From Candidatus Heimdallarchaeota archaeon B3_Heim (lineage in GTDB: Archaea > Asgardarchaeota > Heimdallarchaeia > Hodarchaeales > Hodarchaeaceae): a stretch of DNA of 32,000 nt. Shown here piece after piece: positions 1 to 6,775 of the stretch (position 1 is the stretch's first letter; each line of letters starts with the position of its first letter). The stretch spans positions 30,001-62,000 of the forward strand of contig NJBF01000010.1 of the NCBI GenBank assembly GCA_003144275.1. Reading direction: 5' to 3'. The translations under genes and the position numbers were made by a program. Under the pieces are notes generated by a model, which did no database searches, was not told the DNA's origin, and saw only the letters and a list, made by a program, of their open reading frames with translations.

Positions 1-4
1 GTCC

Positions 5-220
5 ATGATGAGCTCCGAGGAGTCATCAAAGACTCTGAGAATGAAAGTTACCGATCAACAAGTGCTAGAATCTGAACGAATTGCCATTTCTGATCTCCTA
101 TCATCATTAGAAGATCGATATACTGCTGGTGAGATCTCAATCTTTGAATATTCACGTTTATACAAGAAATATACCAAAGAGCTTTATTTACTCCGGAAAC
201 AGTTAGAATACTTGAGCTAG
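5..220 (+). CDS. Steadiness-box (Vps23/Vps37-like) helical hairpin protein, ESCRT-I; may extend upstream of the window
   Basis: LLSSLEDRYTAGEISIFEYSRLYKKYTKELYLLR fits the steadiness-box hairpin pattern; lies directly upstream of vps28. No in-frame stop is visible before position 5. Confidence 0.7.
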   Translation: MMSSEESSKTLRMKVTDQQVLESERIAISDLLSSLEDRYTAGEISIFEYSRLYKKYTKELYLLRKQLEYLS

Positions 221-859: not shown

Positions 860-2206
860 TTATAAAAGATTAGTTTTACCAGTTCTTATAAGCAGCTCTG
901 TCCTTTCTTCAGCAATTTTCGCTAATTCAAATTCAAATTGTTTCAAGAGTTCGAAATATTCACGACCCGCTACTTTTTTACGGCCTTCTTTTAGTTCCTG
1001 TAAGGCTCGTTTTGATGCAAGTTCATGAATGCGCAAGTCTCGTAGTCTTTCCTCTAAAAAACCATTAACAAAATCTGGGATATTCTCTGGACTCTTACTT
1101 GGAGGCTTATTGGAGGAAGATGGGGTACTTTTATGGTTCTGAAAATTTAATGCTGCAAGGATTTTTTCCTGATAAATTTCCGAAGACCAATCACGGAATG
1201 GTTCATTGATATACAAGTCACTTGGACGACCTAGATAACTCAACTTCAGTGAATTGAATATCCGAATAAGATTTTGAGCATCAGACTGTATGACAAAATC
1301 TCGTTTAATAGCAGTTATTAAAAGCTTATCCCGCTTTAAAAATCCAGAGTTCTTTTTTTGTACATCCATTAGCGCTTTGGGAGAGAATTCATCACAAATG
1401 ATAGTTTTATGGCTTAAAACATTAGTCCTCTTTTTCTGAAGTAATACAATCCTATCCGTTGTAATAATTAAATCAATAGTAGTCTTCCTAAAGCTATCAT
1501 TATTGAGATCTAAATTTGAAAAATAGCCAATACCCAATTCACCTGGGATTAAGACGAAAATATCGAGACATCGGGCTAGGTGTTTTCGCGTTTCATCAAA
1601 TAAATCACATTTTTTCTCTACTTGTTCTATAAGGGCGGAGATAGTTTCAAGTTTCGATACAACCGTCTGATCAAAGCTCGCTATATGTTTTTGAAATAGA
1701 GAGATTTGCAAAGATGAGTTACGAAAAGAATTCTCCGATATTGGGTGACGTACTACATTATGGTAGATTCTTTGGAGCTTTGAAGCATATTCCTGAAATT
1801 CATTCAAAGTAAAATTTTCAATTTTCTTTGTCTCTAGAAAGATTTTATCAATCAGATTGCCAGGAATGAGAAATTGTTTGCGAAAGGAACGTAATCTTGA
1901 CTCCAATTGGCCAGTTCGTTTTAAGAGGATAACAGGACGATATCCTACGTGCTTGAGAGATCGTTTAAGGACAAAAATTTCTTCTAATAAGTCCGCTTTT
2001 CCATTTTTAATGTGGTCAAATGCTTCAATATTTGGTGATCCACAGGAACACTTGAGTTGGGAACCAGTCATAAGAGATCGTGTTGCGCATTGTTGACAAA
2101 AAGTAGCACCGCAATCTAAACACTTGTGTACCTCCGAAGAAACGAGTGCTGAACCACAAAAGGAACAGTAACCCGTCGACTCAGAAGAAGACGAACTAAG
2201 ACCCAA
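860..2206 (-). CDS. Uncharacterised multidomain protein: FYVE-like Zn finger, coiled coil, PH-like domain, C-terminal steadiness-box-like hairpin
   Basis: 448 aa, TTG start. CSFC-x11-CLDC-x4-CQQC-x12-CSC; helical heptad-rich middle; LIPGE...DLIITTDRIVLLQKK...KKNSGFLKRDKLLIT (PH-like); REYFELLKQFEFELAKI at the C-terminus. Confidence 0.65.
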   Translation of the reverse strand: MGLSSSSSESTGYCSFCGSALVSSEVHKCLDCGATFCQQCATRSLMTGSQLKCSCGSPNIEAFDHIKNGKADLLEEIFVLKRSLKHVGYRPVILLKRTGQLESRLRSFRKQFLIPGNLIDKIFLETKKIENFTLNEFQEYASKLQRIYHNVVRHPISENSFRNSSLQISLFQKHIASFDQTVVSKLETISALIEQVEKKCDLFDETRKHLARCLDIFVLIPGELGIGYFSNLDLNNDSFRKTTIDLIITTDRIVLLQKKRTNVLSHKTIICDEFSPKALMDVQKKNSGFLKRDKLLITAIKRDFVIQSDAQNLIRIFNSLKLSYLGRPSDLYINEPFRDWSSEIYQEKILAALNFQNHKSTPSSSNKPPSKSPENIPDFVNGFLEERLRDLRIHELASKRALQELKEGRKKVAGREYFELLKQFEFELAKIAEERTELLIRTGKTNLL

Positions 2207-2547: not shown

Positions 2548-3267
2548 ATGGGCCTTAGACGTATAGAAGAGAAAATAACTCAGGAAGCGGCAATGAAGGT
2601 AAAGGGTAGTCAATTGGCCCTCTTGTCTCTCAATGAGATGAGTAAAAAGATAAGAAATTTACACAAAGAACTTCAGAAGCTAGAATCTCAATATAAATCT
2701 GACATTAAGAAGAATCCCGACCTAGCCCAGAAGGTTATGAAACTAAGGGAGGAGCTAGGACTTCCTCTTGCAATTGGAATATATGATGTAGGTAAAAAAC
2801 CTTCATTCAAATCACGACTGCAGGGAAATGATGAATATATTAACTATTTAGGACTAAGAATTATAGAGATTGGTAAACAGATACGGAATCATACAGGGGG
2901 TATCTTAAGCGTATCAGAATTAATCTTGAAACTTAATGATGAAAGTAAAGGAATTGTGGTTTCTATTTCAGACGTCAATAACGCTTTGGAACTTTTAACT
3001 TCGAATGGATTAATTCATCAGATACGAACACTCGTAGGAATGAAAATTATCGAGTTTATTGACCCAGAACTGACACAAGATCATCAACGTATACTTGAGT
3101 TGGCAGCACAGGCTAATGGCCAGCTTTCAATGACTGAATTAGTTCAAAAATCAACTTGGACAATAGAACGAGTAGAACGATCTATAGAAGTTTTGATCAA
3201 TAAAAAAGTAGCAATCAAATCTAATACCTTAGATGGCATATTAATATCATTTCCAGGTGTAGGATAG
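2548..3267 (+). CDS. vps22: ESCRT-II subunit Vps22/Vps36-like (EAP30 family) winged-helix protein
   Basis: YKSDIKKNPDLAQKVMKLREELGL and YINYLGLRIIEIGKQIRNHTGGILSVSEL match Vps22/Snf8 motifs; C-terminal winged-helix domain. Confidence 0.9.
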   Translation: MGLRRIEEKITQEAAMKVKGSQLALLSLNEMSKKIRNLHKELQKLESQYKSDIKKNPDLAQKVMKLREELGLPLAIGIYDVGKKPSFKSRLQGNDEYINYLGLRIIEIGKQIRNHTGGILSVSELILKLNDESKGIVVSISDVNNALELLTSNGLIHQIRTLVGMKIIEFIDPELTQDHQRILELAAQANGQLSMTELVQKSTWTIERVERSIEVLINKKVAIKSNTLDGILISFPGVG

Positions 3268-3466: not shown

Positions 3467-4147
3467 TTGAAAATACAAGTGAAACGACTTAAAGGGTTTT
3501 TAACGGGATCGAAACCATCTTCATCAACTGAAACAAAAGCGAAGTTAAAAAGAACCATAAATCAAATGGAAATAAAGGTAAAAAACTATTCAAGGCAATC
3601 TGATGAGCAATATGAGTTAGCACGTCGACTGTTAAAATCTGGGAACAAACCTGGAGCTCAACAAGCTCTGAAGCGACGTGAGCTATATTTGACCCAGACA
3701 ACGAACACTCATAGCAAGATAGCAAACTTACAACGTATCATTGAAACGCTTGATATTTCTGCAGATAACGTTACTTTAACAGAGACACTAGCGCAGGCAC
3801 AAATTGCAATTGATAGCAATGTTGAAGCAGCTTCGCCTGAAAGGACAGAAGAAGTAATGATGTCCTTAGAGGATTCCATAGAAATGGTTTCAGATATGGA
3901 GGACTCTCTTACAGATACCTCGATAACTGAAATCGGAATGGATGTTGAAGCAGATGATCGAATATCTATGCAAATGGCGGAATTAGAAGCGGAATTATCA
4001 TCGGGTTCTCTTCCAGCAAGTGAAACAAGTGTTTCTGCAACACCTAGTTCCCCAATATCAGAAAACACCGCTGGAAAAAAACGTGAAGCAGACAAAAAGA
4101 AATTAGATGAGATGCGGAAACAGATTGAAGAAGGTTTGAGGTCATAA
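3467..4147 (+). CDS. ESCRT-III protein, Vps20/32/60 (Snf7) type
   Basis: LLKSGNKPGAQQALKRRELYLTQ...NLQRIIETLD is the Snf7-type core; basic N-half, acidic C-half. Start is TTG 3467 or GTG 3479. Confidence 0.9.
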   Translation: MKIQVKRLKGFLTGSKPSSSTETKAKLKRTINQMEIKVKNYSRQSDEQYELARRLLKSGNKPGAQQALKRRELYLTQTTNTHSKIANLQRIIETLDISADNVTLTETLAQAQIAIDSNVEAASPERTEEVMMSLEDSIEMVSDMEDSLTDTSITEIGMDVEADDRISMQMAELEAELSSGSLPASETSVSATPSSPISENTAGKKREADKKKLDEMRKQIEEGLRS

Positions 4148-4149
4148 AC

Positions 4150-4764
4150 ATGGTTTTTGATAAATTTGGTCAATGGCTTAAAGGTGGAGGAAGTGGAGCC
4201 AGTTCTACACGGAAGTGGATCGTTCGACTTCGAATGGTTGAAAAACGAATGTTACGTCAACGGAAAAAATTGCTAAAAGAAGAAAAAAATATGTTAAAAG
4301 AAGTTGAGAAATCCATAGAAGATGGTGATATGTCAACTGCTAGACTATTAGCAAAGGATGTAGCCAAAAACCGTAATATGGCCCGCGCATGCCAACAAAT
4401 GGCTAGCAGGGTAAAAGGGATCAAGTTTAAGTTAGAACAAGCAGCTGCTACACAAGCAATTGGAAAGGATTTGAAAGGACTCGTACGCACACTTCATACA
4501 ATGAATGCCGAATTAAAAATTCCACAGCTTGAAGGTGTTCTTCAACAAATGGAAATCGAAACAGAGCGAGTTGATATTGCAACAGAAGCAATGGATGAAG
4601 GATTTGAGATGATGACAACCGATGGAGAAGAAGATGAAGTGGTTGAAAAAATCCTTGGAGAGATAAGCGCGTCTAAAGCAGCTACAGCTGATTTTGGTCT
4701 TCCTTCTCCCGATATACGGTCCCAAGAATTACAAAAAGAACTAGAAAAAATAAAGAAAAGCTGA
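4150..4764 (+). CDS. ESCRT-III protein, Vps2/24/46 type
   Basis: GDMSTARLLAKDVAKNRN...LHTMNAELKIPQLEGVLQQMEIE is typical of Vps2/24/46; MIM1-like C-terminal helix ELQKELEKIKKS. Confidence 0.9.
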   Translation: MVFDKFGQWLKGGGSGASSTRKWIVRLRMVEKRMLRQRKKLLKEEKNMLKEVEKSIEDGDMSTARLLAKDVAKNRNMARACQQMASRVKGIKFKLEQAAATQAIGKDLKGLVRTLHTMNAELKIPQLEGVLQQMEIETERVDIATEAMDEGFEMMTTDGEEDEVVEKILGEISASKAATADFGLPSPDIRSQELQKELEKIKKS

Positions 4765-4816
4765 CTACAAATCACTTTTCTTCTTAAGTAGGTAAGTATG
4801 TTTACGTGGTGATACC

Positions 4817-5959
4817 ATGGGTTCTCCTTTATTTGAAGCAGCTAAAAAGAATGCTAGCTTGGCTTATAAGCTGGATCAAAGTGGACAGACTCAGCAAGCA
4901 GTCAAATATTATGTATCTGCAGCTGAACAGTTACAAAAACTCATTAATTTTACTGACGATTCAAATATGAAAAATCTCTATTATCACAAAGCAATGGAAT
5001 ATATTTTGCGTGTGAAGGAAATTCGAGGAATAATCGAACCATCTGAAACCCCGACCCCTTCTTCCGCTCCATCCCCAAAAAGTGACGAAATTTCCGATGC
5101 TATTTCAAGTGTTATCGTTCGAGAGAAACCAAACGTGAAGTGGGAAGACGTTGCAGGAATGGAGGAGGCTAAACGTGCATTAAGAGAAGCCGTCATCTTA
5201 CCTATGTCTCGACCTGATTTATTCAAAGGTGCACGTAAACCATGGAAAGGAATTTTGATGTATGGTCCCCCTGGTTGTGGGAAAACTTATCTATGTAAGG
5301 CGGTAGCTTCTGAAGTGGAATCAACCTTTTTTTCAGTAAGTGCAGCGAATTTAATAAGTAAATGGTTGGGGGAGTCAGAAAAGCTCGTAAATGAACTCTA
5401 TGAAAGAGCAGTAGAAGAAGCCCCGTCCATAATTTTCTTTGACGAAATCGATGCTTTGGCAGGAACACGAGGCGGGAGTTCTGAAGGAGAGGCAATGCGA
5501 AGAGTGAAAACACAACTATTACAAGCAGTAGAAGGTTTTGCTACTGGTGATGAACTACTGGTCACTATAGGAGCAACGAATACGCCTTGGGATATCGATG
5601 CTGCAATGCGTAGACGTTTTGAACGTCGTGTTTATGTAACACTCCCAGCAAGGGAAGCAAGGGAGGTAATGTTTTCAATTCATACAAAAGGGATTCCCAT
5701 GGGTGCAGATGTTGATTTTAAAGCATTAGCTGAAATTACAGGCGGATATACGGCTGCAGATATTGCTTTAGTGTGTCGTGAATCCTTGATGCAACCGATT
5801 CGTGAACTGGATGCAGAAGGGGCCCTAACCGATATGACTGTACAAGTACGAGCTCCGAAAGCAGTTGATTTTCATAATGCCATGATGCATATTCGTCCCT
5901 CAGTCGCTCCAGATGAGCTTGCGCGATATGATAAATGGCGCGATAAATTTGGAGGGTAG
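4817..5959 (+). CDS. vps4: Vps4 AAA+ ATPase with N-terminal MIT domain
   Basis: MIT helices (AYKLDQSGQTQQAVKYY), Walker A GPPGCGKT, pore loop SKWLGESEK, Walker B IIFFDEID, SRH ATNTPWDIDAAMRRRFERR, C-terminal KFGG. Confidence 0.95.
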   Translation: MGSPLFEAAKKNASLAYKLDQSGQTQQAVKYYVSAAEQLQKLINFTDDSNMKNLYYHKAMEYILRVKEIRGIIEPSETPTPSSAPSPKSDEISDAISSVIVREKPNVKWEDVAGMEEAKRALREAVILPMSRPDLFKGARKPWKGILMYGPPGCGKTYLCKAVASEVESTFFSVSAANLISKWLGESEKLVNELYERAVEEAPSIIFFDEIDALAGTRGGSSEGEAMRRVKTQLLQAVEGFATGDELLVTIGATNTPWDIDAAMRRRFERRVYVTLPAREAREVMFSIHTKGIPMGADVDFKALAEITGGYTAADIALVCRESLMQPIRELDAEGALTDMTVQVRAPKAVDFHNAMMHIRPSVAPDELARYDKWRDKFGG

Positions 5960-6001
5960 AGAAACCTCATCCATCTTTACCAATTCATGAGCTGTTAATG
6001 G

Positions 6002-6775
6002 ATGGCCGAATTACAACGAAAAAAGGAAAAGGTTGACAAGAAAAAAACTTCAGTTGATGTACTTGAAGATGTACTTCAGCAAGTAACAGCAGACAAACCG
6101 AAATCAACTAAGATAGAAGCTCCAAAAATCAAACAAAAACCTTTAACGAATACTTTACCTTATTCCCAGTTTCATAAATCGCAATCAAAGGTCGAACAAA
6201 CGATAACTGTGAAGTCCGAACGAATTTCATTAGCTGAGCTAAAACCTGGTACCGTTCATCCTAATGTAAAACCGATTTTACCTGGTTGGGTTACAAAGCC
6301 ATGGCGATGGATGATTCCAGAGGATCCTGAATTAAAACAGCAGTGGTTGCTTACCTGGGGGGATTTCTTACTTGCATTTGCACGTGTGTTAAACCAACAT
6401 ATACTCGATCTCCAGGAAGTTAGCCTAGTCTACCCATTTCAAAATGGGGTACTTCATAAAAAGCTGTCAATTCCACAGTTAAAAGCTATTTCTGAGTATT
6501 TAATTGAGCAAGAAAATGCCTCATGGTGGGATACAGACGAAACACAACTTAGGGTATACTGGAAGACCCTCAATTCTTTTGCCGAGGAAATTTTCAATTA
6601 TTCCTTCCAAAACGGATTTGAAATGATCACACTTTATGATATGGTCAAAATGAATCAGTCTTGGTCATCCCTTCCACCTAAGGATCTTGCTATTATTATG
6701 AAACTCATGGTAAAGTCAAAGAAAGCTACATGGGCGGACTCAGAACAGAAAACAATAGAATTTGTTTTTTTTTAA
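6002..6775 (+). CDS. vps25: ESCRT-II subunit Vps25 homologue with N-terminal extension
   Basis: LKQQWLLTWGDFLLAFAR...YPFQNGVLHKKLS...ASWWDTDETQLRVYWKT...IFNYS...ITLYDM aligns to eukaryotic Vps25. Confidence 0.85.
   Translation: MAELQRKKEKVDKKKTSVDVLEDVLQQVTADKPKSTKIEAPKIKQKPLTNTLPYSQFHKSQSKVEQTITVKSERISLAELKPGTVHPNVKPILPGWVTKPWRWMIPEDPELKQQWLLTWGDFLLAFARVLNQHILDLQEVSLVYPFQNGVLHKKLSIPQLKAISEYLIEQENASWWDTDETQLRVYWKTLNSFAEEIFNYSFQNGFEMITLYDMVKMNQSWSSLPPKDLAIIMKLMVKSKKATWADSEQKTIEFVFF

Follow-up and report, generated by a model that had tools for sequence, protein, structure and literature searches.

A Hodarchaeales member of the Asgard Znr_CC_PH_SB family, encoded between vps28 and vps22, as a candidate ESCRT-I-type accessory subunit

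[quoted passage not shown] How their ESCRT-I finds membranes and joins ESCRT-II is, therefore, a standing question, and the factor that would bridge the two complexes is missing (Hatano 2022, PMC9192718). The closest described proteins form an Asgard family named Znr_PH_CC_SB or Znr_CC_PH_SB (asCOG cog.011556), which Makarova et al. (mBio, 2024; PMC10936438) proposed from sequence to be "a likely ESCRT-I component" with a PH domain that "is expected to be membrane associated." The published description gives the family three zinc ribbons, and the example listed there is a 650-aa Lokiarchaeum GC14_75 protein encoded between L35Ae and MetE, two genes from Vps20. Our literature searches found no experiment on the family. 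Here, we analyzed a 32,000-nt stretch of a 3.9-Mb Hodarchaeales (Heimdallarchaeia, Asgard) assembly (contig NJBF01000010.1; G000:C10:30001-62000; hereafter, the window) in which a gene for a 448-aa protein, the target of this study, lies between vps28 and vps22. Judged by architecture and profile matches, the target appears to be the Hodarchaeales, two-zinc form of Znr_CC_PH_SB. It is not a new discovery: this form joins a family already defined computationally and is known here from sequence and predicted structure. We think it probable that the target is the Hodarchaeales orthologue of an Asgard-specific ESCRT accessory family, with its hairpin in the ESCRT-I headpiece and its PH domain and helical bundle at the membrane. 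A first-pass annotation made from the window sequence had described the gene accurately except for its strand, a truncated neighbor, the bundle, and an over-specific FYVE label. Its interpretation was reasonable and already in print, contrary to its remark that the architecture was undescribed.

We modeled the target with AlphaFold2 using 29 sequences (mean predicted local distance difference test score, pLDDT, of 80.4). The model has five parts: an eight-cysteine zinc finger, a three-helix bundle, a PH domain, a disordered linker, and a C-terminal helical hairpin. By profile comparison, the hairpin is a bona fide steadiness box and most like that of Vps23. Its prediction as a hairpin (residues 378-442) agrees with what the first-pass annotation had supposed. 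That annotation had also aligned the C-terminal ALQELKEGRKKVAGREYFELLKQFEFELAKI segment, which is present as quoted at residues 401-431, with the hairpin of the neighboring protein, and hhalign recovered the same register. Using a profile of the hairpins of 20 divergent family members (A5), hhalign matched the Vps23 steadiness box of the genus at Prob 95.3% (P 2.4e-8) over 54 columns spanning the whole hairpin. The same profile matched the N-terminal hairpin of Vps28 at 42.9% (P 2.5e-4), a level equal to that between the Vps23 steadiness box and Vps28 (43%). Eight helical controls, comprising the target's own helices, the Snf7 hairpins, the Vps22 N terminus, the Vps4 MIT domain, the Vps25 N terminus, and the Vps28 C-domain, scored 2.4% or less. 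The match to Vps23 emerges only when the wide family profile is used; with close relatives alone in the profile (A1), hhalign gave 2%. Independently, Pfam Vps23_core matches the hairpins of 4 of the 20 members (best E 2.5e-7), and PF09454 is recorded on several Hermodarchaeia homologues. It is the hhalign match together with these independent Vps23_core matches that identifies the hairpin as a steadiness box.

The PH-like domain proposed at first pass is borne out by its predicted fold and by its structural neighbors. In exhaustive VIA comparisons, residues about 208-330 matched PH-type structures with Z scores of 10.5-12.9 and a root-mean-square deviation (rmsd) of 2.2-3.0 Å over about 100-110 residues. 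These included the PH-GRAM domain of MTMR2 (Z 12.9, rmsd 2.9, 110 aa), the PH domain of LARG (Z 12.6), Exo84 (Z 12.3), the PH domain of TAPP1 (Z 11.7), and the GLUE domain of EAP45 (Z 10.5). When the PH segments of 23 family members were compared with Pfam, bPH_3 matched 10 (best E 4.2e-7), Vps36_ESCRT-II 4 (0.0063), and GRAM 4 (0.01), and these matches place the domain in the GRAM/GLUE/bacterial-PH branch. In keeping with this branch, a strand motif, TTxR(I/L), is conserved in the domain, with R252 invariant across the family (alignment A6), and the target's PH domain is basic (isoelectric point, pI, of 9.4). A tandem of DH and PH domains, as in RhoGEFs, was considered and set aside as a two-domain match, and we do not take the helices for a DH domain. 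The tandem ranks first in Foldseek (residues 66-330, E 1e-6), and the template modeling (TM) score is 0.19-0.25 with an rmsd of about 19 Å; in VIA, two-domain alignments were no better than the PH domain alone (best 1kz7, Z 11.8, rmsd 5.4, 171 aa). The RhoGEF domains come out on top in Foldseek because the target's long helix runs straight into its PH domain, and the resemblance, judged on the model, appears to be one of topology only.

The long helices that the first-pass annotation described as a stalk are indeed present; in the model, however, the three of them pack against one another as a single intramolecular bundle. The bundle is basic (pI 9.8), and its residues 69-203 align with a designed helical bundle in VIA (Z 11.2). 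It holds the most conserved motif of the family, Y89-R-P91-V, together with F178, and the wide alignment shows no variation at P91 or F178. The motif (residues 89-92; window positions 1931-1942) lies in the first long helix, and its proline is invariant family-wide at about 20% identity. Within the order, conservation is highest in the hairpin, in the segment that follows the PH domain (residues 331-357), and in the last six residues (majority-residue frequencies of 0.84-0.91). The hairpin stands at 0.85; the post-PH segment likewise has a mean frequency of 0.85, with 9 of its 27 positions invariant, and its W340 reaches at least 90% in the wide alignment. The linker between this segment and the hairpin is the least conserved part of the protein (0.38 within the order), and its length varies strongly across the family. 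In the alignment of close relatives (A1), T442, G443, K444, and N446 are invariant. To judge from these conservation patterns, the C-terminal tail, TGKTN(L/I)L, and the Y-R-P-V motif are candidate partner-binding sites.

At the N terminus, eight cysteines that vary little or not at all in the wide alignment A7 form what is probably a cross-braced two-zinc finger of the RING/ZZ/FYVE/B-box kind. The first-pass annotation had called the finger FYVE-like on the strength of the HKCLDCGATFCQQC segment, which is present as quoted at residues 27-40. The cysteine spacing stands: the target shares C-x2-C ... C-x2-C-G-x2-F-C-x2-C with the FYVE domains of Vps27/Hrs and EEA1. A FYVE identity is not supported, as the PI3P motifs are missing, the Pfam score falls below the cut-off, and the listed structural neighbors are RING and ZZ domains. 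For residues 1-70, FYVE is the top Pfam model (E 8e-4; 19.9 bits, where the cut-off is 27.8), with RING_2 (3e-3) and zinc-ribbon models close behind. Across the zinc segments of 19 members, Pfam matched DZR in 16, FYVE in 15, B-box in 15, and the ANCHR-like B-box in 14, none better than E 6.5e-6 and the best FYVE match at 8.4e-5. Against the Protein Data Bank (PDB), a family profile of the zinc domain matched RING E3s best (RNF4 3e-7, RING2 3e-5, BRE1 1.7e-4) and FYVE chains lower down (WDFY3 1.5e-4, EEA1 4.5e-4, Hrs 0.009, Vps27 0.012). When the domain was modeled by itself (pLDDT 83), the structural matches were weak: RING domains came first in Foldseek (TM 0.5-0.63, E 0.03-0.2), and in VIA the top places went to ZZ/RING domains (Z 5-6.7), the listed neighbors being RING, ZZ, and U-box domains with Foldseek E of at least 0.03 and VIA Z of at most 6.7. 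For the target finger, FYVE is thus not distinguishable from RING, B-box, or a double zinc ribbon. Its sequence nevertheless indicates that it is not a reader of phosphatidylinositol 3-phosphate (PI3P). FYVE domains carry the PI3P motifs WxxD, R(R/K)HHCR, and RVC, whereas the target finger has none of the three, reads SSEVHKCLDCG and QLKCSCGS, and has no Trp before its first cysteine pair. The lack of the basic R(R/K)HHCR pocket had been noted correctly at first pass.

The placement of the target in Znr_CC_PH_SB is based on a profile search of 1.8 billion representatives and on six-frame searches of 400 Asgard genomes. The former found 23 proteins (16 with E below 1e-8), and the distant members, at about 20% identity, share the target's architecture; the latter place the family in many Asgard lineages. 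When the wide alignment was used for a further word-index search, only close relatives came back. Relatives of about 500 aa, deposited under such names as "PH domain-containing protein [Hermodarchaeota]" and "B-box zinc finger protein," have 12 cysteines (six pairs, three zinc sites) followed by helices, the PH domain, and the steadiness box. Their first two zinc sites correspond to the eight-cysteine module of the target, and across the family, the zinc module ranges from one to three sites. A profile built without Hermodarchaeia sequences (A2) matches open reading frames (ORFs) of the Hermodarchaeia type at E 1e-24 to 1e-27. With the target included, a wide profile (A8) matches 660- to 750-aa ORFs in 127 of the 135 genomes of the largest Asgard family, with E down to 2e-51. 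These ORFs are similar in size to the 650-aa Lokiarchaeum type member, to which the target is linked by this chain of profiles rather than by direct alignment. The member in Heimdallarchaeota LC_3 is HeimC3_02860. Target and type agree in the order of zinc ribbons, coiled coil, PH domain, and steadiness box, in their ESCRT neighborhood, and in the proposed ESCRT-I role. They differ in that the type has three zinc sites in 650 aa, whereas the target has two in 448 aa and, unlike the type, occupies a fixed place on the opposite strand, with vps28 on one side and vps22 on the other.

An apparent absence of the family from the lineage with a fused UEV-Vps23-Vps28 gene (0 of 31 genomes) proved to be an artefact of sensitivity, as a wider profile matches 22 of the 31 at E of 0.001 or less and 17 at 1e-15 or less. 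A 670-aa ORF from the largest Asgard family (genome G173; L049:7903-9915, G173:C25), taken up as a possible Loki member, is a different protein in which only the C terminus is steadiness-box-like. Over most of its length, which holds Lys-rich repeats and helical repeats, it is unrelated to the family; the C-terminal end gives a weak match to the steadiness-box region of the profile (E 9e-4), and the ORF may encode another protein that carries a steadiness box.

Within the genus, the target is a real, conserved gene under constraint. Fifty-two database proteins match it at 48-91% identity, the named ones all from Hodarchaeales or a similar taxon, and six-frame searches found a homologue in 20 of the 21 other genomes of the genus. 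The order Vps23-Vps28-target, with the target on the other strand, holds in all 21 genus loci examined, and in the five 20-kb regions that we retrieved, the target is followed by Vps22-Snf7-Snf7-Vps4-Vps25. In orthologues, ATG, GTG, or TTG serves as the start codon at the corresponding position. Shorter database entries (398-405 aa) begin at an internal Met and so lose the first cysteine pair. Many deposited gene calls of the family (P0004, P0015-P0020, and P0060 compared with P0081) lack the first cysteine pair or the entire zinc finger. These calls pick an internal Met, the true starts are often TTG or GTG, and annotation-based surveys of architecture would undercount the zinc module.

Outside the genus, in divergent lineages at about 20% identity to the target, linkage to ESCRT genes recurs, and the immediate partner alternates among ESCRT-I, ESCRT-II, and ESCRT-III. 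In the lineage of homologue P0061, UQ_con, VPS28, and the target homologue follow one another in that order and direction. P0057 is convergent with VPS28 and UQ_con, and close by are genes for a RING protein, Vps4, Vps25, ubiquitin, and ThiF; P0060 lies directly upstream of EAP30. In the Hermodarchaeia-like and three further families, the homologue immediately adjoins the pair of Snf7 genes; in five such neighborhoods from three other Asgard families (L039, L042, L044, L046, and L051), it is the form of about 500 aa. In at least 12 genomes of the family with fused UEV-Vps23-Vps28 (f4), a constant distance of about 6 kb separates the homologue from the fusion gene. No ESCRT gene was found within 8 kb of the homologue in LC_3. 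Linkage to ESCRT genes, which the first-pass annotation had proposed to check as synteny, holds in 21 of 21 genus genomes and in several other Asgard lineages. In f4, which belongs to Heimdallarchaeia (genomes G011-G041; for example, G023:C21:32580-40271), the Vps28 domain lies within UEV-Vps23-Vps28 ORFs of 465-490 aa. Between the fusion gene and the homologue lie, by analogy with the P0063 and P0068 contigs, genes for PGM, HSP20, CDC48, a beta-CASP nuclease, and EAP30. A UEV-Vps23-Vps28 fusion has reportedly been seen in AB_125 as well.

In the window itself, Pfam matches to VPS28 and EAP30 on the flanking ORFs uphold the first-pass placement of the target between vps28 and vps22. The gene is on the strand opposite to its ESCRT neighbors, being convergent with vps28 and, on its other side, divergent from vps22. 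Sequence read to 640 bases past the window edge shows that the protein at positions 5..220, which had been read as a free hairpin, is actually the C terminus of a 247-aa UEV-Vps23 cut by the edge of the window. The whole ORF (L052:11478-12221; G000:C10:29477-30220) encodes a UEV domain, a short coiled coil, and a steadiness box in that order, and it matches Pfam UQ_con (7.8e-14) and UEV (7.8e-5); the fragment inside the window matches Vps23_core at E 0.05. On the 5′ side of this gene lie genes for a longin-Rab GTPase, a membrane protein resembling Yip1, an E1-like ThiF protein, and a ubiquitin-like protein of 80 aa. The target and vps22 share the divergent intergenic region at 2207-2547 (341 bases), and this arrangement suggests that the two genes may be coregulated from putative back-to-back promoters. 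All coordinates are collected in Table 1.

Table 1. Features of the target gene and its ESCRT neighbors, in window coordinates
Feature	Positions	Strand	Description
Target gene, Znr_CC_PH_SB-type	860..2206	minus	Intact ORF, 448 aa, TTG start
Zinc finger, residues 11-62	2021..2176	minus	Eight Cys/two zinc; C14,C17 / C29,C32 / C37,C40 / C53,C55; cross-brace-like spacing
Three-helix bundle, residues 66-212	1571..2011	minus	AlphaFold2 helices 66-106, 116-153, 158-212; pLDDT about 90-96
PH-like domain, residues 214-330	1217..1567	minus	AlphaFold2: 7-stranded sandwich plus C-terminal helix (225-325)
Post-PH segment, residues 331-357 (FRDWSSEIYQEKIL)	1136..1216	minus	Short helix 343-352; W340 near-invariant family-wide
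Ser/Pro/Lys-rich linker, residues 358-377	1076..1135	minus	pLDDT <50; predicted disordered; variable
Steadiness-box-type hairpin, residues 378-442	881..1075	minus	AlphaFold2 helices 378-406, 414-442
C-terminal tail, residues 443-448 plus stop, TGKTN(L/I)L	860..880	minus	Order-specific; conservation 0.91
UEV-Vps23, C-terminal 72 aa (steadiness box)	2..220	plus	Part of 247-aa UEV-Vps23; start 523 bases upstream of window
Vps28, 206 aa	230..850	plus	Pfam VPS28 E 8.7e-12; 9 bases between ends of Vps28 and target genes
Vps22 (EAP30)	2548..3267	plus	Pfam EAP30 E 9.2e-20; 341 intergenic bases to target
Remaining ESCRT operon: two Snf7/ESCRT-III genes, Vps4, Vps25	3467..6775	plus	Snf7 1.2e-10 and 1.4e-16; AAA/MIT/Vps4_C; ESCRT-II 3.1e-16

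Given the PH and steadiness-box assignments and the ESCRT linkage, the most reasonable reading of the target is an extra ESCRT-I-type subunit that carries membrane and cargo modules. From the gene itself, the folds of its domains, the hairpin's homology, its family membership, and its ESCRT linkage, we infer an arrangement in which the hairpin, on a flexible 20-residue linker, would dock in the headpiece of ESCRT-I alongside those of UEV-Vps23 and Vps28, at the place that Vps37 takes in eukaryotes. The basic GRAM/GLUE-like PH domain and the basic bundle would then hold the complex at the membrane or at a membrane-bound ligand. The N-terminal two-zinc cross-brace finger would bind a protein (for example, ubiquitin, an E2, or the Vps28 C-domain) rather than PI3P. 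Like eukaryotic Vps37 (Mod_r), the target has a C-terminal hairpin homologous to the Vps23 steadiness box, and its gene accompanies those of Vps23 and Vps28 in an organism without Vps37. Vps37, however, lacks the zinc-finger and PH modules, both of which the target has, and Mod_r (PF07200) was not among the best 25 of 66 Pfam families for the hairpins of 20 members.

Several points weigh against docking in the headpiece. Odinarchaeal ESCRT-I has been reconstituted as Vps23(2):Vps28(1) with no third protein (PMC9192718), so a second Vps23 can fill the third headpiece position. The hairpin of Vps37 continues its stalk, whereas that of the target follows a disordered linker and is not continuous with a stalk helix. 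The hairpin profile found no eukaryotic ESCRT-I chain among PDB sequences, only generic coiled coils, and the Hermodarchaeia-like homologue neighbors ESCRT-III, with Vps28 usually on another contig. Against membrane binding, the canonical phosphoinositide motif of the β1-β2 loop is not conserved across the family, and the net charge of the PH domain is only −1 to +1 in 5 of the 23 members (four Hermodarchaeia-like and one from another lineage); the nonconserved loop and the near-neutral members leave a specific phosphoinositide pocket unsupported. A complex prediction with Vps23 (178-247), Vps28 (1-95), and the target (372-448), run without controls, scored 0.00 and speaks neither for nor against binding.

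Three rival explanations, which are not mutually exclusive, have to be set beside the headpiece subunit. The target could stand in for Vps36 and bridge ESCRT-I, ESCRT-II, and the membrane through its GLUE-like PH domain and zinc finger, with the hairpin contacting Vps22 or Vps28 instead of completing a Vps23/Vps28 headpiece. The Vps36 analogy was also drawn by Makarova et al. (PMC10936438), and in archaea that lack Vps36, a free Lokiarchaeal steadiness-box protein interacted with Vps22 in a yeast two-hybrid assay (PMC9192718). The divergent pairing of the target with vps22 and the position of P0060 directly upstream of EAP30 point the same way, as do the Vps36_ESCRT-II matches and the EAP45 GLUE alignment described above; the yeast Vps36 GLUE domain (2cay) ranks second in the PDB for the PH family profile, albeit at E 0.13. 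Vps36/EAP45 (GLUE plus NZF) and the target both combine a GRAM/GLUE-branch PH-like domain with zinc fingers in an ESCRT protein. We nevertheless regard this explanation as rather doubtful. Vps36 has a winged-helix ESCRT-II core and NZF zinc fingers inserted within its PH domain, and the target has neither: Pfam gave no EAP30 match on it, its AlphaFold2 model contains no winged-helix domains, and its finger is N-terminal. The GLUE matches are below threshold and do not rise above the GRAM or bacterial-PH matches, and the hairpin is closest to the steadiness box of Vps23, which is a module of ESCRT-I.

A place on the ESCRT-III side seems improbable. The protein would there be a membrane adaptor close to ESCRT-III and Vps4, whose hairpin associates with itself or with ESCRT-III-side factors in the manner of CdvA, without involving ESCRT-I. 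Such a role would fit the homologues that adjoin the Snf7 pair in three other Asgard families, where Vps28 is usually on another contig. Pfam CdvA also matches the hairpin of one member (E 6e-4), and Makarova et al. noted a similarity between the steadiness box and CdvA (PMC10936438). However, the link to ESCRT-I genes is tight in Hodarchaeales, in f4, and in the P0057 and P0061 lineages, and hhalign gave 1.4% or less between the hairpin and the N-terminal hairpins of Snf7. It is still harder to see the target as a working RING-type E3 that ubiquitylates cargo at the membrane and passes it to the UEV domain of Vps23. RING E3s lead the PDB profile matches, nearly all of the Foldseek top 25 for the zinc-domain model are RING domains, and just upstream there are genes for ubiquitin and for E1 and E2-like proteins. 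Yet the zinc matches are below the family cut-offs and driven by cysteine spacing, models of FYVE, B-box, and zinc ribbon do just as well, and the VIA scores are low with ZZ domains on top. A range of one to three zinc sites across the family would also be unusual for a catalytic RING, and we hold this last explanation to be highly improbable.

With an ESCRT-I assembly hairpin, a PH domain, and a zinc finger in one conserved protein, the target is an obvious candidate for the job of bringing Asgard ESCRT-I to membranes and joining it to ESCRT-II. The Hodarchaeales lineage is held to be close to eukaryotes, and a compact protein of 448 aa, wedged between vps28 and vps22 in such a lineage, makes a convenient construct for reconstitution. 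A further idea, which we consider unlikely, is that the family is an archaeal precursor, or at least a single-chain functional equivalent, of two eukaryotic innovations, the Vps37 hairpin and the GLUE/zinc-finger membrane-and-ubiquitin reader of Vps36. If this were true, Asgard ESCRT-I would come with a membrane anchor of its own, and a single protein would link it to ESCRT-II.

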